Source: an uncultured Bacteroidota bacterium (lineage in GTDB: Bacteria > Bacteroidota > Bacteroidia > Chitinophagales > Chitinophagaceae). Taken from it: DNA of 64,000 bases. The stretch lies in the NCBI GenBank assembly GCA_903831575.1, contig CAIKYB010000046.1, positions 16,986 through 80,985 of the forward strand, in the 5' to 3' direction. The notes beneath the pieces are model-generated. The model had not been told where the DNA came from and searched no databases. It was given only the letters and a program-made list of their open reading frames with translations. Numbering within the stretch: position 1 is the first letter of the stretch; every line of letters starts with the position of its first letter. A program made the position numbers and the translations under genes. Positions 589 through 51,456 of the stretch are shown piece after piece.

Positions 589-615
589 GGAGTTGGTTGA
601 AGGGTTGATTGGTTG

Positions 616-709
616 ATTGTTTGTTGTTTATTGTTTGTTGTTATGCGAATCATCAAATCTTCAAATCATCAAATTACCCAATCAACTTCTCAACAAATCA
701 ACTAATTAT
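616..709 (+). repeat. 94-bp composite repeat, copy A (7-mer TTGTTTR units then 8-mer ATCAAATC/AATCAAC units)
   Basis: Ungapped hand alignment to 1528-1621: 82/94 identical. Confidence 0.85.
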
Positions 710-827
710 TGCCATTAAGTCACGAAGTTGAAATCTTTATACTAGTTTAAAAGTTAAATAATTATTACATATTGTATAAATATTTTGTCTAAATGTAAAA
801 AAAACCTTACATTTATGAAAAAATATA

Positions 828-1307
828 ATGATTCAATTCAAATTTTTATTCCCAAACAAGTACAAAAAATCAGGGTGGGTGATTTTAATAATTGCTTCAA
901 TCCTTGGTATAATATTGATGTTTACGGGCTTTGAGGGTATTCCTATCCACACAAAGGCATTTGCTGTATTCAATGATGAAATATTTGGGGAAAGTCAATT
1001 TTTCACTTTCATAAATACTAATGTTACCAACACTATAGTTGGTTCTTTATTTATCATCGGAGCGATATTAGTTGGATTTTCAAAAGAAAAATATGAGGAT
1101 GAGTTTATTGCCAATATTCGTCAATCTTCACTCCTTTGGGCTGTTTTTGTAAATTATATTTTATTACTTATTTCCTTTATGTTCATCTATGGTACTGCTT
1201 TCTTAAATGTAATGCTGTATAACATGTTTACTGTATTGCTGATTTTTATTTTCAGATTCAATTTTGTTTTGTATCGTAGTTTAAAATCCAACACAGATGA
1301 AAAATAA
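828..1307 (+). CDS. Hypothetical membrane protein (about 4 TM), coupled to downstream XRE regulator
   Basis: 159 aa with hydrophobic segments; KEKYEDEFIANIRQSSL resembles proteins typically paired with small XRE regulators; overlaps next gene by 11 nt. Confidence 0.75.
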   Translation: MIQFKFLFPNKYKKSGWVILIIASILGIILMFTGFEGIPIHTKAFAVFNDEIFGESQFFTFINTNVTNTIVGSLFIIGAILVGFSKEKYEDEFIANIRQSSLLWAVFVNYILLLISFMFIYGTAFLNVMLYNMFTVLLIFIFRFNFVLYRSLKSNTDEK

Positions 1308-1497
1308 ACTCAAAGTAGAAAGGGCAATAAATAATCTTACACAAGAAGAGCTTGCAAAAAAAGTATCGGTTAGTCGGCAAACGATCAATGCGATGGAAGC
1401 CAATAAATATGTTCCTTCAACTGTATTGGCTCTTAAAATCGCACGAGTTTTCAGTAAATCTGTAGAGGATATTTTTATGCTAGATGATGAGGATTGA
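1297..1497 (+). CDS. XRE/Cro family helix-turn-helix transcriptional regulator
   Basis: 66 aa; LTQEELAKKVSVSRQTINAMEANKYVPS is a classic HTH_3 pattern. Confidence 0.93.
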   Translation: MKNKLKVERAINNLTQEELAKKVSVSRQTINAMEANKYVPSTVLALKIARVFSKSVEDIFMLDDED

Positions 1498-1527
1498 AAT
1501 GTTCAAGAGGTTCAAAATGTTTAAAAG

Positions 1528-1621
1528 ATTGTTTGTGGTTTATTGTTTGTTGTACTGAGAATCTTCAAATCAACAAATCCTCAAATTACACAATCAACCT
1601 TTCAACTAATCAACTAATTAT
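1528..1621 (+). repeat. 94-bp composite repeat, copy B
   Basis: Direct copy of 616-709 (12 mismatches, no gaps). Confidence 0.85.
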
Positions 1622-1632
1622 CCTCCCCAGGC

Positions 1633-2934
1633 TTAATGGGCAAAATCCTGATAATAATCCCCTTTGATTCTTTCCATGGATGGATTGAAATACCCGAATT
1701 TTAAATTAGGAAATTCTTCTCGAATTAATTCCATCAGTTGTTTTACGCCCATACATTCTCCGGTATCATGAACATCAATTTTTTCTAAATACCAATCGGG
1801 ATCAATATTAAAATTACGCCACTGGATCATACACAAATCCGTTTCTCTGATGAGTTTTCTTAAAGCTTCATACTCTTCAATACTGTCTGTCATTCCAGGA
1901 AAAACAAAATAGTTTATGCTTGTCCATGCGCCATAACTACGGGCAATTTTTAAACTCTCCGTCAAATCTTCAAATACATAATTATTAGGCTTGTAATAAG
2001 CTGTATAAATCTCTTTTCTTGCAGAGTTCGTGCTTACACGGATACTGTTCAAGCCTACTTCACATAAAGCTTTTACTGCATCGGGCTTACTGCCATTGGT
2101 ATTAATATTAATACTTCCTTTTTGTGTATGTTTTCTGATCTCAATGATGGAGGCTTTAATCGTTTCCCACATCAACAAGGGTTCTCCTTCACAACCTTGT
2201 CCATAACTGATAATAGGAAAAGGAGCTGATTCCAGATGGGGCACTGTAAACTCGACGATTTCTTCTGCAGTAGGCTTAAACGTTAGTCGATCTTGTGTAC
2301 TGAAAATAGTTTCTTCTTCAGGCTGAAAGGAAATACAACCAATACAATTGGCGTTACATGCAGGTGATACCGGAACAGGACATTCCCATCTGCCCAAAGC
2401 CAGATTTCTTGCAGCAGGACAAGTATAAGTCATACAGCAATTTTCCATTAAATGTTTAACCAAACGGTTATGGGGAAACGCCGCTAATAAATGATCATGC
2501 CCTTTTTCAATTTGGTCATCATCATATCCTGCAGCTTCTTGACGAATATCGATTTCAATTCTTACTGCAGGAACAAATAACTGGTCATTAAACCAACCTG
2601 CTGCAGTGTAACAAAACAAAGGCAATGTAGGCGCATCAGGCAAAGTTTCATAAGCAGCCATATACAAACCTGTGTGTGCAGGAGGAATAAAAGCTGCAAC
2701 CGCCCAACCCTTTTCGCACAAACGCATATCCCCTGTTTCCACATCAATACCAATACCTCTTCTGCCTGGCAATTCATATAATTGTCCGCCCTCTGGCAAT
2801 TCAATCCAATCTTCCACAGCAATGGGAAATGCATCCCACCCGCTTCTGCCTACAACATATAAGCTTGTATCTTCAAAAATATTACCATTACCATCAGAGT
2901 ACATCAGATAAGGAGATTCATTTAAAATGCTCAT
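1633..2934 (-). CDS. Radical SAM protein of unknown function
   Basis: CxxxCxxC motif (CNANCIGC); GQGCEGEPL SAM-binding-like loop; long N-terminal extension with extra Cys (CCMTYTC). Confidence 0.85.
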   Translation of the reverse strand: MSILNESPYLMYSDGNGNIFEDTSLYVVGRSGWDAFPIAVEDWIELPEGGQLYELPGRRGIGIDVETGDMRLCEKGWAVAAFIPPAHTGLYMAAYETLPDAPTLPLFCYTAAGWFNDQLFVPAVRIEIDIRQEAAGYDDDQIEKGHDHLLAAFPHNRLVKHLMENCCMTYTCPAARNLALGRWECPVPVSPACNANCIGCISFQPEEETIFSTQDRLTFKPTAEEIVEFTVPHLESAPFPIISYGQGCEGEPLLMWETIKASIIEIRKHTQKGSININTNGSKPDAVKALCEVGLNSIRVSTNSARKEIYTAYYKPNNYVFEDLTESLKIARSYGAWTSINYFVFPGMTDSIEEYEALRKLIRETDLCMIQWRNFNIDPDWYLEKIDVHDTGECMGVKQLMELIREEFPNLKFGYFNPSMERIKGDYYQDFAH

Positions 2935-2945
2935 GCAGGTTAAAA

Positions 2946-3512
2946 TTAAGATTGCGTGATGTTGTTTAATTGTTGTTGAACAAAAGTATTGAATGCTGTT
3001 TCATCTAAACCTTTATTTTCATTTTCATTGATGGTATGCTGAATCAATTTATTGTTTTTAAAATCGATTGTAAGAATATTGTCTTTCAAAATCAAATTAG
3101 ATACTTCATTCCATTCCATTTTTTTTCGGGGTAATGAAGGATAAGAAATAAAATCTACACAAAAATCAATTTTCAATTTCCTCATAGTAATGTAACCCAT
3201 AATCGAAAAAACTAAAAGTAAAAAGCCTATCAAATAAAACCCAACTAGCATCCAAAAAATTGAAGCTAAAAAGAAACTAAATACAATATGAAAGAAATTA
3301 GTTTCTCTGCCTTTATTGTAAAAAAAATACGAGATAAGTGGGGTAAATATTATAGCTCCTCCTATTGATGACAAGGTATGAACACTACTATCTGCAGCAA
3401 CACGGGTTGATAAGTACGTAAATCCAACAATATTAATAACGGAAATTAAAATGGTTAAAATTTTATACGTCCCTTTCTTTTCGTTAGGTAATATGATTGA
3501 AAATTTATCCAT
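2946..3512 (-). CDS. Hypothetical membrane protein
   Basis: 188 aa, several TM segments; start overlaps agmatinase stop. Confidence 0.7.
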   Translation of the reverse strand: MDKFSIILPNEKKGTYKILTILISVINIVGFTYLSTRVAADSSVHTLSSIGGAIIFTPLISYFFYNKGRETNFFHIVFSFFLASIFWMLVGFYLIGFLLLVFSIMGYITMRKLKIDFCVDFISYPSLPRKKMEWNEVSNLILKDNILTIDFKNNKLIQHTINENENKGLDETAFNTFVQQQLNNITQS

Positions 3513-4557: not shown

Positions 4558-4579
4558 GGGGGAATTTATAATTAGGCAA

Positions 4580-4587
4580 CAAAGATA
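4580..4587 (-). promoter_or_regulatory. Bacteroidota -7 promoter element (TATCTTTG) for agmatinase operon
   Basis: Matches TAnnTTTG 23 nt upstream of the start. Confidence 0.6.
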
Positions 4588-4650
4588 ATTGAAGATTGAT
4601 TTTATCTGCTAAAAAAATAGGGATATCTCTACTCTACAATTGTTTTGAAT

Positions 4651-4658: not shown

Positions 4659-4674
4659 AGCATAAATTACTCAT

Positions 4675-8526: not shown

Positions 8527-9255
8527 ATGAAATTAGACGTCCTCGCTTTTGGTGCACATCCAGATGATATCGAATTAAGTTGTTCGGGGCTTCTATTAGT
8601 GGAGAAATCTCAAGGAAAAAAAATTGGAGCAGTAGACTTAACAGAAGGTGAATTAGGTTCTAGAGGTGATGTTGCAACAAGATACAAAGAGGCTGAAGAT
8701 GCAAGTATAATACTAGGATTAGATGTAAGAGAAAACCTGAAATTACAAGACGGCTTCTTCAAAAACGACCAAGAAAACCAGTTGAAAGTCATTGCTCTGA
8801 TTCGAAAATACAGACCTGAAATCGTTTTATGTAATGCTACTTCAGACAGACATCCAGATCATGGCAAAGCAGCACAATTAGTTTCAGATGCATGTTTTTT
8901 AGCTGGATTAATTAAAGTAGAAACAAAAGACAACAATACCGTTCAAGAACCTTGGAGGCCTAAATATGTTTTCCACTACACACAGGACAGATATATTGAA
9001 CCAGATTTCCTGATTGACATTTCCGATGTTTTTGAAAAAAAATTAGCTTCTATAAAGGCATATAAAACACAATTTCACAACCCCGGATTTCAAGGACCTG
9101 AAACTTATATTTCAACACCTGAATTTTTAGAACAACTTATTAGTGGCAATAAGATAAATGGGAAAAAAATCGGGGTTGCATTTGCAGAAGGATATACCAG
9201 CACTAAAAAAATCGGATTAAGAAGTCTGGATGCATTAATTCAAAAAAATACTTAA
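8527..9255 (+). CDS. bshB1: Bacillithiol biosynthesis deacetylase BshB1 (PIG-L family)
   Basis: AHPDDIELSC, LTEGELGSRG, RHPDH motifs. Confidence 0.88.
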   Translation: MKLDVLAFGAHPDDIELSCSGLLLVEKSQGKKIGAVDLTEGELGSRGDVATRYKEAEDASIILGLDVRENLKLQDGFFKNDQENQLKVIALIRKYRPEIVLCNATSDRHPDHGKAAQLVSDACFLAGLIKVETKDNNTVQEPWRPKYVFHYTQDRYIEPDFLIDISDVFEKKLASIKAYKTQFHNPGFQGPETYISTPEFLEQLISGNKINGKKIGVAFAEGYTSTKKIGLRSLDALIQKNT

Positions 9256-9265
9256 TAAAATCTAC

Positions 9266-10339
9266 ATGAATATGACAACTCCTAAATTTAAAAACATCAA
9301 AGGATCCACTTTTCACCAGGAATTAAAAAAGAGGGTTCAGGAATATTTCACAGAAAATAAAATTGACCAAACAGGCAATTTCTCTTTATATTTTAAAGCT
9401 ATTTTACTTTGGACTGTTTACATCGCTTTATACGTTCATTTAGTATTCTTCACGCCTGTATCATGGATTGCTGCTTTAGAATGTCTGATAATGGGAGGAT
9501 TAACAGCAGGAATCGGATTCAATGTGATGCACGATGGCGGACATGGCAGTTTTAGTAATAGTAAATTCTGGAATAAAATTGCAGCTTTCTCTGTAAATGG
9601 TTTAGGCGCAAGCATGTTGATGTGGAATAACAAACACAATATCATTCACCATACTTATACGAATATTGATGGCGTTGACGATGACATTGAAATCAAGCCA
9701 CTACTTAGAATGTGTCCAACACAAAAAAAATATACCGTACACCGCTTTCAACATTTTTACGTTTGGTTTTTGTACAGCTTCTTGTTAATCATTTGGGTAT
9801 TTCTTACCGATTATCAAAAATATTTCAGAAAGAAAATCGGCATTGTTCCAATTAAAAAATTAAGTGCATTTGATCATTTCGCTTTCTGGATTGCAAAAAT
9901 AGGATACTATTCGATGATGATTGTATTACCTATTTATCTAGTTGGATTTATGAATTGGATGATTGGATTTTTAATCCTGAGTATGTTTGCAGGATTCGTC
10001 TTGAGTATTGTTTTCCAATTGGCACATACAGTTGAAGAAACCGCATTCCCCGTTCCACTTGACAATAATAATATTGAAAATGAATGGGCTATTCATCAAA
10101 TTGAAACAACCGCAAATTTCGCCACCAAGAATAAATTAATTTCATGGTTGGTGGGGGGATTGAATTTCCAGATAGAGCATCATCTCTTCCCTAAAATTTC
10201 TCACATCCATTATCCCGAAATCAGTAAGATTATCAAAAATACATGCGAGGAATTTGATGTGAAATACATTGAGTATAAAAGAATGAGAGATGCTATTATT
10301 TCTCACACTTTACATTTAAAGAAAATGGGTGCTGCTTAA
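9266..10339 (+). CDS. Membrane-bound fatty acid (acyl-CoA) desaturase
   Basis: Three His boxes: HDGGH, HNIIHH, QIEHH. Confidence 0.92.
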   Translation: MNMTTPKFKNIKGSTFHQELKKRVQEYFTENKIDQTGNFSLYFKAILLWTVYIALYVHLVFFTPVSWIAALECLIMGGLTAGIGFNVMHDGGHGSFSNSKFWNKIAAFSVNGLGASMLMWNNKHNIIHHTYTNIDGVDDDIEIKPLLRMCPTQKKYTVHRFQHFYVWFLYSFLLIIWVFLTDYQKYFRKKIGIVPIKKLSAFDHFAFWIAKIGYYSMMIVLPIYLVGFMNWMIGFLILSMFAGFVLSIVFQLAHTVEETAFPVPLDNNNIENEWAIHQIETTANFATKNKLISWLVGGLNFQIEHHLFPKISHIHYPEISKIIKNTCEEFDVKYIEYKRMRDAIISHTLHLKKMGAA

Positions 10340-11437: not shown

Positions 11438-13093
11438 ATGAGTGAAGAGAAAAGCTTAAACTTTCTGGAAGAAATCGTTGAGACAGATTTAAAGAATGGC
11501 AAATACAAATCCATCATTACCAGATTCCCTCCGGAGCCAAATGGCTATTTGCATATTGGACATGCTAAAAGTATTTGTTTGAATTTCGGTCTAGCCAAAG
11601 ACTATGGCGGACGCACCAATTTACGTTTTGATGATACCAATCCTGTAACTGAGGATACCGAATATGTAGAGAGTATTAAGGAAGATATCAACTGGCTAGG
11701 CTTTGATTGGTCAAATGAATTTTACGCCTCTGATTATTTTGATCAGCTTTTTATACATGCTGTAACCCTTATCAATAAAGGCCTGGCTTATGTAGATGAC
11801 AGCAGTGCTGAAGAAATAGCCAGACTTAAAGGAACGCCCACAGAAGTAGGTAAAGACAGCACTTATCGTTCTCGTTCTATTGCTGAAAATATCGTTTTGT
11901 TTAATGAAATGAAAGAAGGCAAATACAAAGATGGGGAGAAAGTTTTACGTGCTAAAATAGACATGTCACACACCAATATGCTGATGCGTGACCCCATCAT
12001 TTATCGCATCAAGCATGCACACCACCACCGTACAGGAGACAAATGGTGTATCTATCCTATGTACGATTTTGCTCACGGGCAAAGTGATAGCATTGAAAAT
12101 ATTACGCATTCTATTTGCACGTTGGAATTCATCCCACATCGTGAATTATACGATTGGCTAATTTATCAATTAGAGACATTCCCTTCCCATCAATATGAAT
12201 TTGCCAGATTAAATATGACCTATACGGTAATGAGTAAACGAAAACTTTTACAGTTAGTAAACGAAGAGCATGTATCAGGATGGGATGACCCAAGAATGCC
12301 TACCATCTGTGGTTTTAGAAGAAAAGGATACACTCCATTAAGTATCAGGAATTTCTGCGAAAAAATCGGAGTGGCTAAAAGAGAGAATTTAATAGACTTA
12401 AGTTTATTGGAATTTTGCGTTCGCGAAGATTTAAATGAAACTGCAAAAAGAGTGATGGTTGTATTAGATCCTATAAAATTAATCATTACCAATTACGAGG
12501 AGGGCAAAACAGAAGAACTACATAGCGAGAATGGCCCTGATGAAACCATGGGAAGCAGAGCCCTTCCATTTGGCCGCGAGTTATGGATTGAAAGAGAAGA
12601 TTTCATGGAGGAGCCTGCTAAAAAATGGTTCAGATTGGCTCCTGGTGCTGCAGTAAGATTAAAAAGTGCGTATATCGTTAAGTGTGAGTCTTTTGAAAAA
12701 GATGATTTTGGAAAAATAATTTCTATCCATTGTAGCTATTTCCCTGATAGCAAGAGTGGTAACGATACCAGCGGTATTGCTGTAAAAGGAACCATACATT
12801 GGGTAAGTGTTGCTCATGCTAAAACTGCAGAAGTCAGACTTTACGATCGATTATTTCAGGTAGAAAATCCCTCAGCCGAAGAAGGAGATTTTAAAGAATA
12901 TATTAACCCTAATTCATTAGAAATAATTTCTCAAGCCTTTATAGAGCCTTCTTTGGAAAAAGCAGCCAAAGATGATCGCTTCCAATTTATTAGAAAAGGA
13001 TATTTCTGCTTAGATAAAGATGCTACCGCAGATAAGCTTGTTTTCAACAGAACCGTTACTTTGAAAGATGCATGGGGTAAGATGAAGATTTAA
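11438..13093 (+). CDS. glnS: Glutamine--tRNA ligase
   Basis: [15 protein letters not shown] (HIGH) and VMSKR (KMSKS-like) motifs. Confidence 0.97.
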
Positions 13094-13162
13094 TTGATTT
13101 GAGGTTGATTAGTTGATTGTCTGATGTCTTAGCGTAACTCCATTTTATCCTGTTCTCTGCGG
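13093..13162 (+). repeat. G/T-rich 8-mer tract plus CTTAGCG...TTCTCTGCGG module after glnS
   Basis: GGTTGATT AGTTGATT units; TTAGCGTAAC and TTCTCTGCGG also occur in the ychF-trhO spacer. Confidence 0.6.
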
Positions 13163-13227
13163 CTATACTTTTACTACTCTTATAGAAGAACGCTAGCTAG
13201 TTCAGTACGATCTATGCAAATCAATAC

Positions 13228-13743: not shown

Positions 13744-13754
13744 CTATATTTTAG

Positions 13755-13826
13755 AGGTCCCTAGCGGATTCGAACCGCTGTGGAAGCTTTTGCAGAGCTT
13801 TGCCTAAGCCACTCGGCCAAAGGACC
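13755..13826 (-). tRNA. tRNA-Cys (anticodon GCA), CCA not encoded
   Basis: Minus strand GGTCCTT acceptor, AAGCT-CTGCAAA-AGCTT anticodon arm, AGCGG-TTCGAAT-CCGCT T arm, U73 discriminator. Confidence 0.97.
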
Positions 13827-14903: not shown

Positions 14904-15692
14904 ATGACCCTATTTTTTTACAAATATCAAGGCACTGGAAACGACTTTATCATCATAGACAACAGAGACAATAAATTTGACAACATCAACTCCAAACAGA
15001 TTCAAAAATTTTGCGACAGAAAGTTTGGCATAGGCGCGGATGGGCTGATGTTGATGAACAAAAAAGAGGGTTATGATTTTGAAATGAAATATTTCAATGC
15101 CGACGGCCATGCAAGCTCGATGTGCGGAAATGGTGGCCGATGTATGATTAAATTTGCATTTCACATGGGGATTCATAAATACACTTATCATTTTATTGCA
15201 GTTGATGGAGAGCATGAAGCAGAAATTGACAACCAGAATTTGATACGACTGAAAATGAATGATGTAAAAAATATTGAATTGAATAATGGTTATGCGATTT
15301 TGAATACAGGATCTCCGCATTTTGTTAAACATGTTACGGACATCATGAAAGTAGACGTTGTTGAAACCGGAAGAGAAATCAGAGAAAGTGACTCTTTTGC
15401 AAAAGAAGGCATCAATGTAAATTTCGTTGAGTCGGTTGATAATGACACCATCTTTGTAAGAACCTACGAGCGTGGTGTAGAAGATGAAACGCTTAGTTGT
15501 GGTACAGGTGTAACTGCCTCAGCACTAATAGCGGCACATAATGAAAAAGGATTCAATCGTGTTGAGGTTAAAACACTTGGTGGAAACTTAAGCGTAGAGT
15601 ACAATAAAATTAGTGACACAGCATTTGATAACATTTGGTTATGTGGTCCTGCAGAGCTAGTCTTTAAAGGAGAAGTCGAGTTGATTGACTAG
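14904..15692 (+). CDS. dapF: Diaminopimelate epimerase
   Basis: KYQGTGNDF, MCGNGGRC, ERGVEDETLSCGTG. Confidence 0.97.
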   Translation: MTLFFYKYQGTGNDFIIIDNRDNKFDNINSKQIQKFCDRKFGIGADGLMLMNKKEGYDFEMKYFNADGHASSMCGNGGRCMIKFAFHMGIHKYTYHFIAVDGEHEAEIDNQNLIRLKMNDVKNIELNNGYAILNTGSPHFVKHVTDIMKVDVVETGREIRESDSFAKEGINVNFVESVDNDTIFVRTYERGVEDETLSCGTGVTASALIAAHNEKGFNRVEVKTLGGNLSVEYNKISDTAFDNIWLCGPAELVFKGEVELID

Positions 15693-15754
15693 TTGATTTG
15701 ATGATTGGTTAGTTGATTTAACCAAAAATTTAAAACCTTAAAACCATTTAAAAC

Positions 15755-16693: not shown

Positions 16694-17178
16694 TGATGTT
16701 TAATATCAGAGTATATGGATTGCTCCTCAATATAAACAACGAGGTATTAGTGAGTGATGAACTTGTCAAGGGAAAGTATTTTACAAAGTTTTGTGGAGGC
16801 GGATTAGAGCATGGCGAAGGTACTATCGATTGTTTAAAGCGAGAATTCATGGAAGAAATGAATCTAGAAGTGGATATTATTGAGCATTTGTATACTACAG
16901 ATATTTACCAGAAGAGTGCCTTTAATCCTGAACATCAATTGATCTCCATTTATTACGAAGTAAAAGCTTTACATGAAATAAGCATTCCTATCAAACAAAA
17001 TCCATTTGATTTTAGTGATGAACAACTACGAACGCATGAGTTAAGCGGACAAACAGAGTCATTTAGATTTATAAAATGGGAAGAATTTTCAGCAGAGTCA
17101 CTCACTTTTCCCATTGATAAAATTGCTGCAACAGCATTTAAAAGAAAAAAACTATCAGCCATAAGCCGGATTCTGTAA
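16693..17178 (+). CDS. NUDIX hydrolase
   Basis: GGGLEHGEGTIDCLKREFMEE Nudix box. Confidence 0.9.
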   Translation: MMFNIRVYGLLLNINNEVLVSDELVKGKYFTKFCGGGLEHGEGTIDCLKREFMEEMNLEVDIIEHLYTTDIYQKSAFNPEHQLISIYYEVKALHEISIPIKQNPFDFSDEQLRTHELSGQTESFRFIKWEEFSAESLTFPIDKIAATAFKRKKLSAISRIL

Positions 17179-17530
17179 CCATTATGTTTCCATAACAGCG
17201 GCCATCATTTATCTGGCTGTACTATTACTAGCACAATCTTGCTGCCTACCCTTCAATGCATCAGATAAATCTGATTCGGACGAGCCGCCCTCAAACATTG
17301 ATTTACGTGGCATTACAGCACACAAGGTTTACCCATAATGATTATTACTAACCATTCCCGTGAGCTCTTACCTCACATTTTCACCCTCACCACGATTTCT
17401 CGAGGCAGTTATTTTCTGTGGCACTTTCTCTTTCTCTGACTACTCAAAGAAGCCGGAAATTAACCGGTGTGTCGCCCTTTGCTGTCCGGACTTTCCTCTT
17501 CAATTGAATGAAGCGATAGCCGGCTGATAG
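17152..17530 (-). ncRNA. rnpB: RNase P RNA (bacterial type A)
   Basis: Minus strand GAGGAAAGTCC near the 5' end and AGAATCCGGCTTAT near the 3' end (P4); P1 CTATCAGCC/GGCTGATAG; TAATTTTG promoter at 17535-17542. Confidence 0.96.
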
Positions 17531-17624
17531 GCTGCAAAATTAATCTTATTTATTGGGTTTTAATAACTCGGTTAAAAATATGAGTATGAATGATTATTTT
17601 TAAACTCATAAAAGTAGCTTACTA

Positions 17625-23084: not shown

Positions 23085-23158
23085 GTGTTATGTAAATTTT
23101 TAAAATAAATTAATTAAAAATGTAAAATTCAAAATCATCTAATCAAACTAACCGCCAA

Positions 23159-30514: not shown

Positions 30515-30650
30515 AAATCAACAAACCATTCAACTAATCAACCTTTCAACCACATTCAACCCTTTAGACACCTTTCAACCCTTCAACAACTTTCAACAAC
30601 TTTTCAACCATATTAAACCATTCAACCAATCAACTTTTCAACTAATCAAC
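30515..30650 (+). repeat. C/A-rich mosaic tract of 8-10 nt units ending at the ychF promoter
   Basis: About 14 TCAAC/TTAAAC-cored units (AATCAAC, CTTTCAAC, CCATTCAAC); TATATTTG at 30652-30659 follows immediately. Confidence 0.8.
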
Positions 30651-30682
30651 TTATATTTGCACTCGTTTAAAAAATCAAAAAA

Positions 30683-31783
30683 ATGGCATTACAAGCAGGA
30701 ATTGTGGGATTACCCAACGTAGGAAAATCAACTCTTTTTAACGCAGTGAGCAGCAGTGCAAAAGCACAGGCGAGCAATTACAGATTCTGCACGATAGAAC
30801 CCAATACTGGTTTGGTGAATGTGCCCGATCCAAGACTAAACAAATTAGAAGAATTGGTTAAGCCCAATCGTACGGTACCTACGCAGATAGAAATTGTAGA
30901 TATAGCCGGCCTTGTAAGAGGTGCTAGTAAAGGGGAAGGTTTGGGAAATAAATTTCTTGCTAATATCAGAGAAGTTGACGCCATCATTCATGTAATCCGC
31001 TGTTTTGAAGATGATAATATTTTAAGAGATGAAGGGCCTATAAATCCTGTTGGTGACAAAGAAATTATCGAAACAGAATTGCAATTAAAAGATCTGGAAA
31101 GTGTAGAGAAAAAAATACAACGTACAGAAAAACTATTAAAACAAGGTGACGCTAAATTAAAAGCCGAATACGAGGTACTGAAAGCATGCAAAGAACACCT
31201 TGATAAAGGAAAGAATATTTTATCTCTTGGGTTAAGCAAAGATGACAAATCTGCTATTGCTGATATTTTCTTACTAACGGATAAGCCTATTTTGTATGTG
31301 GCAAATGTTGATGAAGCTTCTATGCATACAGGCAATAAATTTTCTAACGCTTTAATTGAAGCTGTTAGAAATGAAGGCAATGAAGTTATTGTAATGACCA
31401 ATGCCATCGAGGCGCAGATTGCAGAATTTGATAATGAAGATGACAAACACATGTTCATGGAAGAGTATAAAATGGTGGAACCTGCATTAGACAGGTTGAT
31501 TCACTCTACTTATAAATTATTAAACTTATCGACATACTTTACCGCTGGAGTTCAGGAAGTAAGAGCCTGGACGATTCAACAAGGATGGAAAGCTCCTCAG
31601 GCAGCAAGTGTCATCCATACAGATTTTGAAAAAGGATTCATCAAAGCTGAAGTAATCGCCTATGATGACTTTGTGCATTATGGATCAGAAGCGGCATGCA
31701 GAGACAACGGCAGATTGCGTATAGAAGGAAAAGAATACTTAGTTCATGATGGCGATGTGATGCATTTTAGGTTTAATGTATAG
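30683..31783 (+). CDS. ychF: Redox-regulated ATPase YchF (Obg family)
   Basis: [36 protein letters not shown]. Confidence 0.97.
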
Positions 31784-31793
31784 TCATGAGGAG

Positions 31794-31982
31794 GTTTCAG
31801 AGGTTTCAAATCGCTGCGCTTGTTTAATGAGTTCAAAACGTTTAAATCAAATTCATCAAAACTAATTTTAAAACAGAATTAAGCGAATCTTAGCGTTCTT
31901 ATTTCTCTGCGGTGATAAATAAACCTTAAGGCGTTTCAAAGGTTTCAATCGCTGCGCTAGTTTAATGAGTTCAAAATGTTTA
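31794..31982 (+). repeat. Two ~51-bp direct repeats (31794-31844; 31933-31982) with TCGCTGCGCT core
   Basis: 47 of 51 positions identical by hand alignment; 88-nt spacer. Confidence 0.85.
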
Positions 31983-32038
31983 GCGTAACCACATAATATC
32001 AAATCCAACCTATTCAACCTTTTCAACCTATTCCCTAA

Positions 32039-33067
32039 TCAACCAAGATTCGGCCTTCTTCTTCTCGACTTATTAAAAACCATCATCCCTTTGTCAATTC
32101 CTTTTCTGAGTTGCTTTTGTTCTTCTTCGGGAAGATTAATGATATCATGACATTCATTACTACAAGTGCCATTAAATTGTTTTGCACAGGTTTCGCATTG
32201 AATAAAAAGCAAATGGCAACCTTCATTTTTACAATTAGTATGTGTATCAGCTGGATTACCACACTGATGGCACTTAGCGATAATTTCGTCTGTAATCCGC
32301 TCTCCTAGTCTGTCATCAAAAACGAAATTTTTTCCATGAAATTTATTGGAAAGTTGTTGTTCCTTAACCTTGTTGGCATAATGAATAATCCCCCCTTCTA
32401 AATGAAATACATTTTTAAATCCACGATGCAGCATATACGCACTTGCTTTTTCACATCTGATGCCTCCGGTGCAATACATGATGATGTTCTTGTCTTTTTG
32501 ATCACCCAATAGCTTAGCAGCCATAGGCAATTGCTCTCTGAAGGTATCACTTGGAACCTCTATGGCATTTTCGAAATGACCAACTTCATATTCGTAATGG
32601 TTGCGCATATCAACAACAACCGTATCGGGATCTTCGGTTAACTTATTAAATTCATCAGCATTTACATATTGTCCTTTATTCGCCATACTGAATTCGGGAT
32701 CTTTAATCCCATCAGCAACGATTTTATCTCTCAATTTCACTTTAAGTACCCAGAAAGATTTCCCATCATTATCAACGGCAATGTTTAGACGAAGTCCATT
32801 TAATGTTGGATAATTATATAAATAACTTTTAAATGCTTCGAAATTTTCTTCAGGAACACTTACCTGTGCATTGATGCCTTCAGTAGCAATATAAATCCTA
32901 CCAAACACATTCAACTCTGCTAACCCTTTATAAAATTCATCTCTGAACTCTTGTGGATTTTCAATAAAAAAATATTGATAAAAGGAAATGGTGATTCTGT
33001 AGAATGTTTCTTCATACAAGCGATTTTTAAGCTCCGCCTGTGAAACGCGATTGTGTAATACTGCCAT
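32039..33067 (-). CDS. trhO: Rhodanese-domain tRNA U34 hydroxylase (UPF0176)
   Basis: [42 protein letters not shown]-terminal Cys cluster; TACTTTTG promoter at 33145-33152. Confidence 0.9.
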
Positions 33068-36567: not shown

Positions 36568-36632
36568 GACTTTTTGTTTTATACCCTGTACCGTGTCAGG
36601 AATTACAGAGTTTGTTTATAAAAATTCTTTCC

Positions 36633-36720
36633 GATTTAGTGATTTGATGATTTGATGATTTGATGATTTGAATGCTATTGACATCTTTAAATGGACAAAT
36701 CAACTCCTCTTCAAATCAAT
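36633..36720. repeat. 8-mer repeat tract inside the rpoA-rplQ spacer
   Basis: (GATTTGAT)x3 plus a partial unit at 36641-36671; complementary CAAATCA units at 36697-36720. Confidence 0.8.
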
Positions 36721-38407: not shown

Positions 38408-38495
38408 AATGTTGTTGGTGACCTTTTAGTGTCGATGCATCATCAGTAAGGTCTTTAAAATAAATGATGCACCCGTTAATAAATAGTGTTATAAA

Positions 38496-43868: not shown

Positions 43869-43940
43869 ATACAATGATTTGGCAATTTGAAAATGTGCTA
43901 AATACAGAATTCCCAATTTTACAAACCAATCAACCAATCC

Positions 43941-44581: not shown

Positions 44582-46522
44582 TTACCATTTCAATTCTATA
44601 CTATTATTACTTCTCTGTACATCTGCCATTCGTTTTGACGGATCTATTTCGGCTTTAAGCAATTCGGAAAGTTTTTTATTGAAGCTAATGGTAAATGTAG
44701 GGTGTGTCCAGCGCCATTCTTCGTCAACAATAGTTTTTGCAGACAGGTCTTCCTGAGACTTATTGCCAAACATTAGATTTAAAGGAATATTATGCATTTC
44801 TGTTGACCCATCTTTGAAAGTTAATTGTAAATCAATCGGCATCGGCATTTGACCGATTCTTTTCAATCGTATTTTAGACACCCCATTTTCTTCCCATAGA
44901 CTGTCTATACTGTAATCAATTGTTTTAGTGGTTTGGGTCCAGTATTCTTTATACCAATCTAATTTAATGCCGCTTCTTTTTTCAGCAATATTGATAAAGT
45001 CCTGTGCATTGGGATGCTTGAATTTCCAAACCTTGTAGTAATCAAGTAAAACTTTATCTCTTGTTGATGCCCCAATAATATACCCCAATTGCTCCATGAA
45101 TATTTCGCCTTTAGAATAAGCATCCACGCTATACGAAAAATTATTATTGTAATGATCTGCATGAGTTGACATCGGTTCTTCTAAACCACTTTTTACCAAA
45201 GAAAAATAACTTGCATAAGAGCCTGCATGATCTTCTGGCAATGAAGCCAATAAGTCTTTAAGTCGGCTATTATTAGGATCGGTTTTAAGAGCATCTTTAT
45301 ACTCTTGAATGGAAGATGCATTGTTATAAAACTTACTAACTAAATCCTCGGCAAAACTAGTAAACCCTTCATCCATCCAGGCATACATGCTTTCATTCGT
45401 TGCTAGCATCATCTGGTACCAACTGTGCATCCATTCATGAAAAACCGTGCCTACTGAAGGTCCGCTGATAAGAGTAGCCATAGGATATTCCATTCCGCCA
45501 TCCCCGCCCTGAATAAAAGAGTATTGAGGATAAGTATATTTTCCAAAATTTTTCTCCATAAAAGGCAAAACTTTAACTGCTGCATTTGCAACTTTCGTCC
45601 ATGCTGTATCGTTATAAGCATTCCCAGGTAATTCATTATAAATAACATGTAATACAGGACCATTTGCCACATTTCTAACAAGATGTTTATAATCAGGATC
45701 TGCTGCCCATACAAAATCATGGATTCGCTCTCCTTTGAAATGCCATGTTCTTTTAGATGTAAGACAATACTTCAATGCTGTATTTGGTTTATCATAGCCC
45801 CAACCAATGTCCGCAGCATTTATCAACACTCCTGTTCCTCCTAATTTATAGGATTTATCAATATTTATAGTGACATCATAATCTCCCCAAACACCATAGA
45901 ATTCTCTTGCAACATACGGCGTAGGATGCCAGCCCTCATTATCATACTCGCAGATTTTTGGATACCATTGACTCATGCTGTAACGAACTCCAGTTTGCGG
46001 ATTATCCCTTCCACTCCTTCTTACTTGTAAAGGAATCTGTGCTTCGAATTCCATGTCAATTTCCACAGCAGTTTTTGGGAGAATAGCTTGCGTAAGATTA
46101 ACTTCTACAATCGTTTCATGGTATTTAAAGGGCTGAGCAACTCCATTAATTTTTAGTGATATTATTTTTTGATACCCAATTTCATTTTCTTTCAAATGCA
46201 GGATCCTGTCTCTAACCCTTCCATCCCAATCTTGCCTGCCATTAATCAATTGCTTGCCCAATTCTCTGCTTCGCACATCCATGCTGCTATTGGGCTGAAA
46301 GGCATTCCAATATAAATGATAAAAAACTCTGTCTAATTTATCTGATGAATTATTTTGATAAATCAGTTGCTGACTTCCTTTTATTTTATTAGAAAAAGTA
46401 TCAACGTCAATTACCATGGTGTATTTGACAGCTTGTTGCCATTTTTCAGATTGGGCTTCCACTTTTATAAAAAGTGAAAAGTAAAAAGTGAAAAGTAAAA
46501 ATATTATTCTCATATGTAACAA
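44582..46522 (-). CDS. M1 family metallopeptidase, secreted
   Basis: GGMEY exopeptidase motif, HEWMH zinc motif with downstream DEG; signal peptide ending EAQ. Confidence 0.92.
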   Translation of the reverse strand: MLHMRIIFLLFTFYFSLFIKVEAQSEKWQQAVKYTMVIDVDTFSNKIKGSQQLIYQNNSSDKLDRVFYHLYWNAFQPNSSMDVRSRELGKQLINGRQDWDGRVRDRILHLKENEIGYQKIISLKINGVAQPFKYHETIVEVNLTQAILPKTAVEIDMEFEAQIPLQVRRSGRDNPQTGVRYSMSQWYPKICEYDNEGWHPTPYVAREFYGVWGDYDVTINIDKSYKLGGTGVLINAADIGWGYDKPNTALKYCLTSKRTWHFKGERIHDFVWAADPDYKHLVRNVANGPVLHVIYNELPGNAYNDTAWTKVANAAVKVLPFMEKNFGKYTYPQYSFIQGGDGGMEYPMATLISGPSVGTVFHEWMHSWYQMMLATNESMYAWMDEGFTSFAEDLVSKFYNNASSIQEYKDALKTDPNNSRLKDLLASLPEDHAGSYASYFSLVKSGLEEPMSTHADHYNNNFSYSVDAYSKGEIFMEQLGYIIGASTRDKVLLDYYKVWKFKHPNAQDFINIAEKRSGIKLDWYKEYWTQTTKTIDYSIDSLWEENGVSKIRLKRIGQMPMPIDLQLTFKDGSTEMHNIPLNLMFGNKSQEDLSAKTIVDEEWRWTHPTFTISFNKKLSELLKAEIDPSKRMADVQRSNNSIELKW

Positions 46523-46560
46523 TTAAACATTAACCTTTATAATTTACTGCCTTATTTTTT

Positions 46561-46630
46561 CAACCAATCAACCAATCAACCAATCAACCAATCAACCAAT
46601 CAACCAATCAACCCTTCAACCCTTCAACCA
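46561..46630 (+). repeat. Tandem 8-mer (CAACCAAT)x6 + (CAACCCTT)x2 overlapping the rsmI 3' end
   Basis: Read directly from the sequence. Confidence 0.95.
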
Positions 46631-47329: not shown

Positions 47330-48094
47330 TTAGGATAACCTTCTTTTAAAAATGAGAGAAACAATAACGTAGAGCATAAAAATCATTGGGATGGCTACCC
47401 ATTGAAACAAGATCATCAATACCATTGAAAGTCCTACAAACAAAAGCAGATGCACATTATCTTTGAGATTTTTAGACTTAACCTTAAATGACATCATAGG
47501 CAAGTTACTCACCATAAGAAAGCTCAATAGCACTATCAATCCATACAAGAACCACTTACTAGCCAATAACTGGTATACAACATCATAATGACCATACCAA
47601 TAAATAAGCGGGAACGACGCTACCAACAAACCTATTGCCGGAGTTGGAACACCTTTAAAATTTACCCGTTGTGTGGTATCTAAATTAAATTTTGCCAATC
47701 TATATGCTGCAGCTGCTACAATTAAAAAAGCTGGAGACAGGAGTAGTATTGAGGTCGTAATACCATCTTCTGCTGAAGCAAAACTCATCCTCAAAAACTG
47801 AAATAAAATCATTGAAGGAGCTACACCAAAACTAACCACATCAGCCAGTGAATCCAGTTGTTCTCCCATTCCTGAAGTTGCATTAAATAGCCTTGCCACA
47901 AAACCATCAAGAAAATCTACTACTGCTGAAAGCCCTATGAATAGTGATGCCATCCAGATTTTTTCAGGAATATCTATTATTTGACTTCCTTCTGCATTGT
48001 ATTGAATGGTAATTCCATTTTGCAACACAAACACAATAGCCATACAACCAAAAACAAGATTCAGTAAAGTAAAAAGATTCGGGATTTGCTTCAT
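47330..48094 (-). CDS. pssA: CDP-alcohol phosphatidyltransferase (phosphatidylserine synthase-like)
   Basis: DFLDGFVAR...GEQLDSLADVVSFG signature; RLAKFN. Confidence 0.85.
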   Translation of the reverse strand: MKQIPNLFTLLNLVFGCMAIVFVLQNGITIQYNAEGSQIIDIPEKIWMASLFIGLSAVVDFLDGFVARLFNATSGMGEQLDSLADVVSFGVAPSMILFQFLRMSFASAEDGITTSILLLSPAFLIVAAAAYRLAKFNLDTTQRVNFKGVPTPAIGLLVASFPLIYWYGHYDVVYQLLASKWFLYGLIVLLSFLMVSNLPMMSFKVKSKNLKDNVHLLLFVGLSMVLMILFQWVAIPMIFMLYVIVSLIFKRRLS

Positions 48095-48145
48095 TTAATA
48101 GCAGTTTTATTTTTTTAGACTGACTTGTTTTAGATTAATCAAAAA

Positions 48146-49435
48146 TTATCTTTTCATCATGGCTTCGATTTCCTCTACAGTAATAGGAATATTTTTCATC
48201 AGATCTTTGTTTCCATTTTTTGTGATCCAAAAATTATTTTCGATACGAATACCCATTTGTTCTTCTTCAATATAAATGCCAGGCTCAATTGTAAACACCA
48301 TTCCAGCTTTTATGGATGAAGTACGAGTACCCAAATCATGTACATCAATTCCTAGATGATGAGAAATACCATGATATAAATATTGCGTATACGCTCTGTT
48401 ATCCGGATCTTCATTTTTAATATCCGATTTTTTAATCAGCCCAATTTTATGAAATACAATCGTTGCCTCATCTCCTATTTTCTTTGTATAATCAACAATA
48501 CTGATACCAGGCTTTAAAATACTTGCTGCGTAATGATGCAAATGCAAACAAGCATTATAAACAATTTTTTGTCTGCTGGTAAACTTTCCGTTAACAGGGA
48601 TTGTTCTTGTTAAATCTGCGCAATAATTGCCATATTCAGCACCAAAATCCATCAGCAATAAATCGCCGTTTTTGCACTCTTTATTATTTTCAACATAATG
48701 CAATGTTCTTGCGTTATCTCCTGAAGCGATAATAGATCCATAAGCAGGACCAGTAGCACGTTGCGACAAGAAAGAATGCCATATTTCAGCTTCGATTTCA
48801 TGCTCCATTACACCTGGCTTAATAAATTTCAACAACCTTCTAAAAGTAATATCTGTGATGTCAATGGCCTTTTGCATTACTTCGATTTCTTCCGGAGTTT
48901 TGATGGCTCTTAACTCTTTTAAAATCCTTGCACTTCTTTCATAACAATGAAGTGGATACCTTTCTCTCATCATTTGAGCATATCTATAATCTCTTACTGC
49001 AATATCATTTGATTTTCTATCATTTTCATTTGTGTTGAGATAAATAGTATTGGCCAGATGAACCCATGGCTGTAACATTCCATCAAGCATATCTAACCAA
49101 ATAATGGTTTGTATGCCAGAAATATTTTGCGCCTCTTGCTTTCTTAAACGACGTCCATCCCATTTCTCTTTATTTTCATTAGGTCTCACTAAAACAAGCA
49201 CCTCTCTATACTTCGGATCTGGATTATCAGGAAATAAAATCAACATGGAATCTTCCTGTTCAATACCTGTCAACCATAATAAATCTGAATTCTGTTTGAA
49301 TTTATACAATTGATCGCCGTTAGTAGGCAACTCATCATTACTATTAAAAATGGCGATAGCATGACTGCCCATTTTATCTAGAAATCGCTTACGGTTATTT
49401 ACAAAAATCTTAGGGTTTAAAGTATGATATTTCAT
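48146..49435 (-). CDS. Xaa-Pro aminopeptidase (M24B)
   Basis: MDFGAE..YCADLTRT, HHLGIDVHD, TIEPGIY, GIRIEN. Confidence 0.93.
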   Translation of the reverse strand: MKYHTLNPKIFVNNRKRFLDKMGSHAIAIFNSNDELPTNGDQLYKFKQNSDLLWLTGIEQEDSMLILFPDNPDPKYREVLVLVRPNENKEKWDGRRLRKQEAQNISGIQTIIWLDMLDGMLQPWVHLANTIYLNTNENDRKSNDIAVRDYRYAQMMRERYPLHCYERSARILKELRAIKTPEEIEVMQKAIDITDITFRRLLKFIKPGVMEHEIEAEIWHSFLSQRATGPAYGSIIASGDNARTLHYVENNKECKNGDLLLMDFGAEYGNYCADLTRTIPVNGKFTSRQKIVYNACLHLHHYAASILKPGISIVDYTKKIGDEATIVFHKIGLIKKSDIKNEDPDNRAYTQYLYHGISHHLGIDVHDLGTRTSSIKAGMVFTIEPGIYIEEEQMGIRIENNFWITKNGNKDLMKNIPITVEEIEAMMKR

Positions 49436-49794
49436 AAGTAAGTTAGTTTTATGTTTTGGTCACCTGTTATAGTCTTTATGATTATTCTTGATCGACAGTA
49501 AGACAATATTATAGATGTTTAATTAATTAAATTTAATTGACATGTATTTTTCGAAACGGATTACAATATACGGCATTATCAAATACTGAAAATTGAAGGA
49601 AGAATACTAGATAAATATTTCAAAAATAATCTGCATTCAAGTTTACAAGTATTTTGATAAACCCAAACAACCATTTTTTAAATATTTTTCAAACAATACT
49701 AAAATTAAAGACTTCTAATTAGATATTTTTTAATTTTTACTGATATTAATTTGTTTCCTATAAAAAACGAAACGCTATTTTTGGCCACCACAAC

Positions 49795-51408
49795 TTGAAT
49801 ATTATGTCAACACTTACAAGAAGTAAAGCGCCAAGCATAGCTTTATCATCGATTGGATTGAATACAAATAATGAAATTCATTATCAACTACTCCCCGAAG
49901 AATTAACACAACAAACCATTGCAAGAAAAGAAGGTTTATTAAATGATACTGGTGCACTTGTAATTAAAACTGGAGAATTCACTGGAAGAAGTCCGAAGGA
50001 TAAATTCATCGTAAAAGATGAAATTACCGCAAATAGTGTATTCTGGAATGATTTTAATCTTCCTATAGATGCAGCACATTTTGACAGCATTTATAAAAAA
50101 ATGATGGCTCATCTTTCTAAAGAAGAATTATGGGTAAGAGATGCTTATGCATGCTCGGACAATAATTATCGTTTACGCATTAGAGTTATCAATGAAAATC
50201 CATGGAGTAACTTGTTTGCCTATAACATGTTTTTAAGACCCGCTGAAAATGAATTATACAATTTTACTCCAGACTGGCATATCATTCAAGCTCCCAGTTT
50301 TAATGCAGATCCAAAAACTGATGGAACACGTCAGCATAACTTTGCAATTGTGAATTTCACTAAGAAGATGATTTTAATAGGTGGTACGGGATACACTGGA
50401 GAAATGAAAAAAGGCATCTTTACCATATTAAATTACATTCTGCCATTTGAAAAGCAGGTATTGAGTATGCATTGCTCCGCTAATATGGGCAAAGATGGAG
50501 ATACGGCCATTTTCTTTGGCCTAAGCGGTACAGGCAAAACAACTTTAAGCGCTGATCCACATAGAAGTCTGATTGGTGATGACGAGCATGGATGGACGAA
50601 CACTAGTGTATTTAATTTTGAAGGAGGATGCTATGCCAAAACTATTGACTTAAGTGAAGAGAAAGAACCCGAAATATTTCATGCCATAAAACCGGGCGCA
50701 TTAGTTGAAAATGTAACTTTTTTTCCAGGTACTAATAAGATTGATTTTTCGAGTAAGGAAATAACAGAAAATACCAGGGTTAGTTATCCGCTCTCTTTTA
50801 TCAGCAATGCCCTTGAGCCATCAATAGGTAAAACACCCAAAAATATTTTCTTTTTAACTGCAGATGCATATGGCATTCTTCCTCCTATTAGCAAATTAAC
50901 AGCAGGTCAGGCCATGTATCAATTCATCAGTGGCTATACTGCAAAAGTGGCGGGAACTGAAGCGGGTATCATTGAACCTAAGTCTACTTTCAGCGCTTGT
51001 TTTGGCGCTCCATTCCTTCCCCTTCATCCCGGATATTATGCAGAAATGCTCGGAAAGAAAATGAAGGAACATAACGTTAACGTATGGATGATAAATACAG
51101 GATGGAGCGGAGGACCTTATGGAATTGGTCATCGCATGAACTTGCCTTATACTAGAGCGATGATTACAGCAGCATTGGAAGGAAAATTAGACCATGTTAG
51201 TTATGAAGCGCATGAAGTGTTTGGAATGATGATGCCTACAACTTGTCCTGATGTACCGGCTGATATTTTAAATCCAAGAAATACCTGGGCAGATAAAAAT
51301 GCTTACGATAATAAAGCCGTTGAATTAGCCAAACAATTTGTAAAGAATTTCGAAAAATATGCAGCTGGTGTGAATGAGGAAACTATAAATGCAGCACCTA
51401 AGTGTTGA
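49795..51408 (+). CDS. pckA: Phosphoenolpyruvate carboxykinase (ATP); true start may be ATG at 49804
   Basis: TGRSPKDK, GLSGTGKTTLS, IGDDEHGW, FEGGCYAK; TATTTTTG promoter at 49776-49783. Confidence 0.97.
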   Translation: MNIMSTLTRSKAPSIALSSIGLNTNNEIHYQLLPEELTQQTIARKEGLLNDTGALVIKTGEFTGRSPKDKFIVKDEITANSVFWNDFNLPIDAAHFDSIYKKMMAHLSKEELWVRDAYACSDNNYRLRIRVINENPWSNLFAYNMFLRPAENELYNFTPDWHIIQAPSFNADPKTDGTRQHNFAIVNFTKKMILIGGTGYTGEMKKGIFTILNYILPFEKQVLSMHCSANMGKDGDTAIFFGLSGTGKTTLSADPHRSLIGDDEHGWTNTSVFNFEGGCYAKTIDLSEEKEPEIFHAIKPGALVENVTFFPGTNKIDFSSKEITENTRVSYPLSFISNALEPSIGKTPKNIFFLTADAYGILPPISKLTAGQAMYQFISGYTAKVAGTEAGIIEPKSTFSACFGAPFLPLHPGYYAEMLGKKMKEHNVNVWMINTGWSGGPYGIGHRMNLPYTRAMITAALEGKLDHVSYEAHEVFGMMMPTTCPDVPADILNPRNTWADKNAYDNKAVELAKQFVKNFEKYAAGVNEETINAAPKC

Positions 51409-51456
51409 TTGGTTGAAGGGTGGTTGAAGATGGTTGATTTTAAGATTAAGGAGCTA

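Follow-up and report, generated by a model that had tools for sequence, protein, structure and literature searches.

Why do tracts of short tandem repeats stand at so many gene boundaries of one bacterial genome, with a G/T-rich form after stop codons and a C/A-rich form before start codons? The question was raised by a sequence-only reading of the window, the whole stretch of 64,000 nucleotides (nt) analysed here, which belongs to an uncultured freshwater member of the Chitinophagaceae near Ferruginibacter (G+C content ~35%). Twelve groups of tracts had been listed and all were found, at the exact coordinates or a few nt off. They are tandem arrays of short units (8 nt, some 7 nt), i.e. long simple-sequence repeats (LSSRs). 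The flanking genes had been named correctly, from a Dpp5-like S9 peptidase to rplQ, with radical SAM, glnS, dapF, RNase R, trhO, rpoA, rsmI, pckA, ychF and rsmG as the others. By nearest gene end, 13 of 13 arms in the window conform to the polarity: the G/T form is on the sense strand past nine stops, and the C/A form precedes the starts of ychF, rsmG, rplQ and an open reading frame (ORF) at 828. Overlooked in that reading were a strand-symmetric rule behind the polarity, TGA in three frames of the G/T form, and the hypervariable, lineage-specific nature of the units.

The sequence TCAACNNNTCAAC, with at most one mismatch, has 28 matches in the window where 5.05 are expected. No shuffle out of 100 gave as many, and 26 of the 28 fall inside the listed tracts. 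A GTTGA/TCAAC core recurs at regular 8-nt spacing at at least seven loci. In total the tracts cover ~680 nt, almost all intergenic, which is roughly one tenth of the non-coding DNA of the window.

Arm order and orientation of the arrays

Two samples were used beyond the window. The family set consisted of the window with 80 rsmI loci and 80 rpoA loci of related Chitinophagaceae (1.75 Mb, 317 arrays), with genes called by a crude longest-ORF heuristic. For the cross-phylum sample, sequences were scanned for four TCAAC cores spaced at period 8; this gave 120 loci, 69 from Bacteroidota and the remainder from the Planctomycetes–Verrucomicrobia–Chlamydiae (PVC) group, Ignavibacteria/Chlorobi, Desulfobacterota and other groups. 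Arrays were located with Tandem Repeats Finder (TRF), the thresholds of which overlook degenerate arms. A scan for windows of keto skew was dropped as a tract definition; it was unspecific, because A-rich coding stretches were caught too.

Paired arrays showed a fixed order. In the family set, a G-rich array was followed by a C-rich one in 41 cases, with no case of the reverse order and one G-rich array standing between two C-rich ones (‘CGC’). In the cross-phylum sample, 32 of 116 arrays had a complementary arm within 200 nt, and the C/A arm lay downstream of the G/T arm in all 32, eight of them located in convergent spacers. The sequence-only reading had held that arms in one spacer are inverted and could pair in the mRNA, and the computed folds bear this out: the arms were complementary at 14 or more of 16 positions in 25 of 45 pairs, compared with 5.7% for shuffled partners, and the array hairpins of relatives fold at −20 to −70 kcal/mol. 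An inverted repeat reads alike on both strands, which is why ‘G/T after stop, C/A before start’ appears in co-directional, convergent and divergent spacers. The start/stop polarity rule is thus one binary, strand-symmetric property of the palindrome: the G/T arm comes first, on both strands.

As a control, an unbiased scan for inverted repeats found hairpins without arrays to be symmetric, with 89 G/T-first and 100 C/A-first. Array hairpins in the same scan were G/T-first by 38 to nine, the nine exceptions being heptamer hairpins of the A-run...T-run kind (TTTTTAC type), without G/C polarity. Viral contigs gave one G/T-first palindrome and no C/A-first.

Single arrays followed the same tendency less strictly. 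In the family set, 90% of the arrays were intergenic. On the sense strand, C exceeded G in start-adjacent arrays (within 50 nt) by 84 to 18, and G exceeded C in stop-adjacent arrays by 83 to 48. About 95 of 138 single arrays were nearer to the gene end expected under the rule, a tendency seen in all four spacer types. The median distance was 6 nt both from a G-sense array to the stop and, in divergent spacers, from a C-sense array to the start.

The two strand forms differ in codon content. Start codons numbered 1.2 per 100 nt on the C-rich strand and 10.6 on the G-rich strand, against 4.4 in background spacers, and 77% of the array C strands held no start codon at all. Stops in all three frames were present on 56% of the G strands versus 16% of the C strands; a 24-nt stretch of GGTTGATT repeats has TGA in each of the three frames. 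Because the G/T form carries stops in all frames, it is restricted to the gene end or beyond and often creates that end, as for rsmI, dapF, pckA and trhO, the stop codons of which sit within their own tracts. Arrays overlapping a stop codon were G-sense by 31 to 7. Arrays inside ORFs were C-sense without exception in the cross-phylum sample (18 of 18); in the family set, 21 of the 28 skewed ones were.

Array-free sequence provides the background to these counts. Leaders without arrays had a G content of 0.10 and an A content of 0.43 from −20 to −1, and array-free spacers showed no G/C skew past stops. Bacteroidetes make no use of the Shine-Dalgarno (SD) sequence, favour unstructured initiation regions and are depleted of AUG near starts (PMC6847099). 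In the cross-phylum sample, arrays before starts were C-sense by 15 to 4 in Bacteroidota versus 3 to 4 in other phyla, both on small numbers.

Tracts of the window and turnover of their units

The first tract starts 1 nt past the stop of the Dpp5-like peptidase (586–588) on the forward strand. Its G/T-rich 5′ arm (589–647) starts with GGTTGAAG/GGTTGATT octamers and goes on as TTGTTTG heptamers; its C/A-rich 3′ arm (648–709), built of AATCATCA / AATCAACN octamers complementary to 589–647, precedes the ORF at 828. The region 586–715 folds as a single long hairpin (−34.3 kcal/mol, z-score −3.3). A second G/T heptamer arm of the TTGTTTG type (1526–1557, forward strand) lies 3′ of an XRE-family gene (1297–1497) in a convergent spacer, and is followed by an octamer array (1560–1621) with the G/T form on the reverse strand, directly past the radical SAM stop (1633–1635). 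On alignment, 1528–1621 and 615–709 are 86%-identical copies of an element of ~97 nt, loop included. The two copies, in the region 589–1621, form direct repeats bracketing a two-gene cassette, a layout that is the same in assembly L288. The cassette genes encode a membrane protein of 159 amino acids without a family match (828–1307) and an XRE-type helix-turn-helix protein of 66 amino acids (1297–1497).

Further forward-strand G/T arrays are found immediately 3′ of the glnS stop (TTGATTTGAGGTTGATTAGTTGATTG, 13093–13120) and at the end of dapF (15683–15720), where the array overlaps the stop (15690–15692) and has a weak self-fold through G·U pairs. The array at 23130–23158, with G/T on the reverse strand directly past the RNase R stop, is weak and degenerate, with no significant fold. 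The longest tract is a C/A array of 135 nt on the forward strand (30515–30650), nearly free of G, in the divergent spacer that precedes ychF (ATG at 30683). It is built of TTCAACC / ATCAACT units and contains 13 TCAAC and no GTTGA. Directly past it, at 30652–30659, stands TATATTTG, which from its sequence is a candidate promoter box. On the reverse strand, the G/T array at 32000–32045 overlaps the trhO stop (32039–32041).

In the rpoA–rplQ spacer (36640–36720, reverse strand), a G/T arm just past the rpoA stop (36720–36695) is followed by the C/A arm (TCAAATCA)4 (36671–36640); the hairpin folds at −20.1 kcal/mol (z-score −2.0). Two AACCAATC units only, a weak tract, abut the rsmG ATG (43941) on the forward strand at 43921–43940. 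The rsmI tract (46560–46630, reverse strand) is a (GGTTGAAG)2(GGTTGATT)6 array (8.9 copies and 95% match by TRF) which extends from the end of rsmI into the spacer and codes for the final RsmI residues and the TGA stop (46608–46610). As RNA, its G/U form folds at −16.4 kcal/mol and its C/A form at 0 kcal/mol. The last G/T array (51403–51442, forward strand) overlaps the pckA stop (51406–51408) and fills a convergent spacer of 48 nt.

Comparison with other genomes shows rapid change by whole units. Identical copies of the RsmI protein were found in lake-metagenome assemblies and in two metagenome-assembled genomes (GCA_947458015.1 and GCA_947468605.1), and protein identity with the best species representatives was 88–97%. 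The tracts are present in seven independent assemblies of the same species, with differences of whole 8-nt units, and are therefore not assembly artefacts. Six other assemblies have four GGTTGATT units in the rsmI tract versus six in the window. In assembly L288 the 5′ arm of hairpin 589–709 is one unit shorter and the 3′ arm two units shorter (24 nt in total, in multiples of 8), and the rsmG tract is unchanged in two other assemblies. A 7-nt repeat of another kind, CTTTTTA/CTTTTCA (4.9 copies, 46468–46501, reverse strand), lies within the signal-peptide coding start of an M1-family peptidase (ATG at 46513) and also varies within the species (L085 versus the other assemblies).

Between species, turnover is larger. 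Most of the ~60 related species of which the spacer after rsmI was read have no tract there; a congener with ~80% nucleotide identity, L207, retains a shorter GGTTGAAT tract after rsmI and lacks the rpoA–rplQ hairpin, and the latter spacer hairpin varies among 75 relatives. Periods of 8 (53 arrays) and 7 (34 arrays) dominate the short tandem repeats of the window and the 80 related rsmI loci. The unit sequence is lineage-specific, other species using TTTGGAAA, TTAGCTAA, GTGAAAAT, TTAGATTG and others, and similar arrays with other units are found in many members of the Bacteroidota as well as in some further phyla. Within a genome, units are shared: the overlap of unit 7-mers between unlinked loci was 0.22, compared with 0.045 in shuffled genome pairings, and no permutation was as high.

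Other dispersed repeats were seen alongside. A family of GGTTTCA/GTTCAAA units (containing AGGTTTCAAATCGCTGCGCTTGTTTAATGAGTTCAAAACGTTTA) has copies at 31791–31850 and 31930–31990 in the ychF–trhO convergent spacer, and a stretch at 1497–1526 is related to it; a TCTCTGCGG motif is common to 13150–13170 and 31900–31915. In metagenome Ga0099797, at least 11 contigs (L299, L307, L314, L323, L328, L329, L366, L367, L381, L403 and L405) carry a near-identical element of ~200 nt around a TTGTTTG heptamer array, with conserved flanks containing GCACATGTATTGGCTCAATGTGCAAGGATTAAGGGTTAAGGC and GGGACATTCGTGCCGGAGTACAG; by its appearance, this is a dispersed repeat present in high copy number in an unrelated organism.

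Rfam over the whole window matched only RNase P RNA and tRNA-Cys, with no match at the tracts. Both are ordinary, a bacterial class A RNase P RNA (17147–17531, reverse strand, 226.6 bits) and a tRNA-Cys(GCA) (13754–13826, reverse strand). At a permissive E≤1, the segment 36500–39500 gave no match. Two conserved structures without an Rfam match lie in this segment. Just upstream of rplQ (36584–36610, reverse strand) is a stem-loop with a 7-bp stem and a 13-nt loop, AWUCCUGACACGG, fixed at 10 of 13 positions. Across 36 distinct relatives the stem pairs without exception (100%), and each of the seven pairs covaries, with 82 double changes (0 of 500 shuffles as high); it is a candidate L17 autoregulatory leader. 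Upstream of rpsD in the S11–S4 spacer (38408–38495, reverse strand), a structured segment is conserved in ~60 relatives, with for example AACGGGTGCATCATTCATTTTAAAAGGTCTTTATAATGATGCATCGTCACTAAAAGACC (L207–L260, around 9240–9320). Its helices appear to covary, with no Rfam match at E≤1, and it is a candidate S4 leader.

Proposed orientation filtering and rival explanations

We propose, with moderate confidence, that the tracts are slippage-driven, REP-like extragenic arrays (REP, repetitive extragenic palindrome), the orientation of which is filtered by constraints of translation and transcription in bacteria that do not use SD sequences. Replication slippage would generate and alter the arrays, with occasional copying between loci, and gene expression would then filter their orientation. 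Before starts, ribosomes that do not rely on SD sequences would need a leader that is poor in G, free of structure and low in alternative starts, which the C/A form would provide and the G/T form would violate. Past stops, the G/T form with its three-frame stops would be tolerated only at or after the gene end, where it would often supply the stop. For pairs, the G/T-first order would be the reverse of terminator polarity, in which an A-rich arm precedes a U-rich arm, and would keep the C-rich, G-poor arm paired once transcribed, in either direction. C-rich, G-poor RNA is the type that Rho binds. A G/T-first hairpin would then be transcriptionally silent both ways, the sole arrangement that is harmless wherever it is located. 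The expected outcome is a hairpin resembling REP elements and bacterial interspersed mosaic elements (BIMEs) directly past stop codons, operons included, which might also protect mRNA 3′ ends, insulate cistrons or provide leaders.

Several points weigh against this proposal. The constraints leave unexplained the G/T-first pairs in convergent spacers, which contain no starts (~11 to 0 over the two samples), and they give no reason for pairs to obey their rule more strictly than single arrays do (63–82%). For one unit family to be common to many loci, either a trans-acting factor or copying from locus to locus would be needed. If transcribed, the C/A tract of 135 nt before ychF would be a strong Rho-loading site. 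A collection-wide search aimed at C/A-first palindromes recovered four loci, one of which is an array alternating as GT-CA-GT-CA, so the arm-order rule is very strong yet not absolute. As to the counts, the family set samples two genomic neighbourhoods across species and its loci are not independent, and the number of stop-adjacent G-sense arrays is inflated, because such arrays terminate any ORF that meets them. Since the convergent-spacer rule and the sharing of units are explained only in part, explanations by a mobile element or by a binding protein stay alive.

The hairpins could be non-autonomous mobile palindromes, similar to REPINs or miniature inverted-repeat transposable elements (MITEs), copied into spacers by a trans-acting enzyme encoded elsewhere, with G/T-first as a family trait because only such copies are harmless. 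Such an origin is possible, if rather unlikely. It would account for the two 86%-identical copies flanking the two-gene cassette, their loop included, for unit families held in common by unlinked loci, for a spacer being occupied or empty depending on the congener, and for an arm order kept in convergent spacers, where local constraints give no explanation. Several unrelated hairpin families also fill the same post-stop niche among relatives. At the rpoA–rplQ hairpin, however, comparison of the window with L207 showed neither a target-site duplication nor a sharp insertion boundary, and among 30 window ORFs scanned, those flanking tracts included, none was a transposase and no REP-associated tyrosine transposase (RAYT) was seen. 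The REP end tag, GTAG or CGTC, was present at neither end of any of 38 array hairpins. Change within the species is by whole units, as slippage predicts, and the rsmI tract is orthologous in the congener and so not newly inserted. The sequence-only reading had offered a self-propagating REP-like element as one of three roles; it comes nearest of the three. That reading had also guessed at co-occurring small genes, none of which is present in the window.

In some relatives (L028, L031, L032 and L055 at about 2870–3000; L242, L264, L270 and L283 after rpoA), G+C-rich mini-hairpins of a different family (CCCCTnAAGGGG, C arm first) stand at the post-stop positions that are taken by array hairpins in other species. 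The heptamer arm (TTGTTTGTNGTTTATTGTTTGTTGT) was tried as a mobile-element marker and rejected, as the metagenome scan returned generic TTGTTTG arrays from many unrelated organisms.

We consider it doubtful that the arrays are multi-site platforms for a putative single-stranded RNA- or DNA-binding protein (S1, a cold-shock protein or another) with (GGUUGAUU)n and (AAUCAACC)n as ligands, forming a post-transcriptional regulon as was proposed for the TAACTGA heptamers. The regular 8-nt spacing of the core and the closeness of arrays to starts and stops, only a few nt away, would suit such a platform, the period probably fitting single-strand better than duplex recognition, and parallel proposals exist (PMC4679880; bioRxiv 10.1101/2022.06.06.494920). 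Against it, units differ between species, a single genome contains several unit families side by side, housekeeping genes show copy-number polymorphism, both strand forms are present, and there is no candidate protein. Nor was there a sign of strand-specific RNA selection, sense and antisense folding equally: when G·U pairs were examined for such selection, sense RNA was the more stable in 19 spacers and antisense in 18.

A broader proposal, which we regard as equally doubtful, is that G/T-first (‘keto-first’) palindromes are a distinct and widespread extragenic class in bacteria that do not use SD sequences. Their genome-specific 7–8-nt unit would be set by a dedicated trans-acting partner, either a unit-specific single-strand protein or a copying enzyme, and their hairpins would be transcription-transparent intercistronic RNA structures that join a stop with the next start or insulate cistrons.

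A role for the tracts at gene 3′ ends, in terminating transcription or in the processing and stability of RNA, is quite improbable. A start at a median of 6 nt past the stop and the many stable folds noted above would agree with such a role, and the REP elements of E. coli stabilise upstream mRNA. Array hairpins may have a stabilising role. The termination signal suggested by the sequence-only reading fails on several grounds. A U tract is absent past the 3′ arm, with 2.76 T per 8 nt, equal to background, and five or more T in only 5 of 38 hairpins. The G+C content of the arms is 0.27, the loops measure ~46 nt, and the polarity is opposite to that of the A-rich-then-T-rich hairpins which dominate convergent spacers (27 to 10). 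In many species, moreover, array hairpins occupy the S11–S4, S4–rpoA and rpoA–L17 spacers, directly past the upstream stop and ahead of conserved leader structures, and an RNA contig of one relative runs across rpoA, hairpin and rplQ. The RNA data are fragmentary Logan contigs of lake metatranscriptomes, which carry neither ends nor depth. A joint in them labelled ‘skips 105’ was rejected as a clean deletion and is a divergent spacer.

Neutral microsatellites with a strand bias from replichore or transcription-linked GC skew are hardly credible, even though most genes at 19–58 kb are on the reverse strand and the forward strand there has negative GC skew, since arms of opposite skew adjoin within 100 nt and two tracts oppose the local skew (pckA, G/T on the forward strand in a negative-skew region; radical SAM, C/A on the forward strand in a positive-skew region), while array-free spacers are unskewed past stops and non-array hairpins are symmetric; the earlier claim of a polarity beyond neutral expectation is thereby upheld.

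The observations amount to a rule that is simple and can be checked: on both strands the G/T arm comes first, the C/A form stands before starts, and the G/T form follows stops or supplies them. The rule holds across one bacterial family and, in a sample, across phyla, and it connects the repeats to three testable constraints, namely translation independent of SD sequences, stops in all frames and avoidance of termination. It matters for annotation, as the tracts give rise to gene ends and keep spurious reading frames open, for strain typing, as they act as natural variable-number repeats in uncultured lake bacteria, and for expression design in Bacteroidota.

Comparison with known repeat systems

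To our knowledge, short-unit intergenic repeats have been reported piecemeal over 30 years, from cyanobacteria, Beggiatoaceae and a few Bacteroidetes, with neither rule nor function attached to them. A literature search for the repeat strings as 14-mers and 16-mers found none of them, and no description was found of an 8-nt period, of complementary arms, of a G/T-first rule, of a G/T form that supplies its own stop or of a link with translation independent of SD sequences. Some systems were set aside early: the integron attC site (GTTRRRY core) for a core mismatch in sequence, and Chi-like or FtsK-orienting (KOPS-like) polar 8-mers and uptake sequences, which are dispersed single copies and not tandem tracts. 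Intrinsic terminators share a hairpin downstream of the gene and differ from the AT-rich arms, large loops, missing U tract and opposite arm polarity seen here.

The cyanobacterial short tandemly repeated repetitive (STRR) sequences and heptamers, such as TTTTGAA/TTCAAAA near starts in Nostoc (bioRxiv 10.1101/2022.06.06.494920), are likewise lineage-specific short tandem units near starts or promoters, and STRR deletion alters reporter output. They belong to a phylum that uses SD sequences, are heptamers and not octamers, and have no documented arm order.

TAACTGA heptamers occur as direct repeats in Beggiatoaceae, cyanobacteria and five Bacteroidetes (MacGregor 2015, PMC4679880). They too are short-unit arrays a few nt upstream of starts in one ‘forward’ orientation, show whole-unit insertions and deletions between strains, are absent from close relatives and are present in ribosomal-protein operons; one Flexibacter litoralis set is in reverse orientation directly past a stop (PMC4679880). 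The window contains no tandem TAACTGA and seven single copies. Unlike TAACTGA, its units are G/C-skewed, and palindromic pairing with a G/T-first rule is unreported for the heptamers, for which one indirect repeat is mentioned. By analogy, the fixed orientation upstream of starts that marks the TAACTGA repeats may be said to recur here with a different unit.

LSSRs of prokaryotes have units of 5–11 nt, according to a later summary of Mrazek et al. 2007 (PMC4679880). Like the tracts, they are tandem short units beyond chance length, mostly intergenic and phylogenetically patchy, with whole-unit change attributed to polymerase slippage; head-to-tail units beyond chance and whole-unit length change between strains were both found in the tracts. 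The differences are that 8-nt and not 7-nt units dominate here, and that complementary pairs have a fixed G/T-first order with an orientation rule at starts and stops. We know of no description of such a pair order and orientation rule for LSSRs.

REP, BIME and REPIN sequences are extragenic palindromes (PMC3733652, PMC3116915), REP elements ending in a GTAG or CGTC tag (PMC3733652). The array hairpins resemble them in being extragenic and palindromic, in their specificity to the species, in a presence that varies among relatives, and in their location just past stops, between convergent genes and inside operons; as far as a window of 64 kb can show, they are probably multi-copy too. They differ in that the arms are arrays of 7–8-nt units which vary by unit slippage, in place of a unique palindrome of 20–40 bp.

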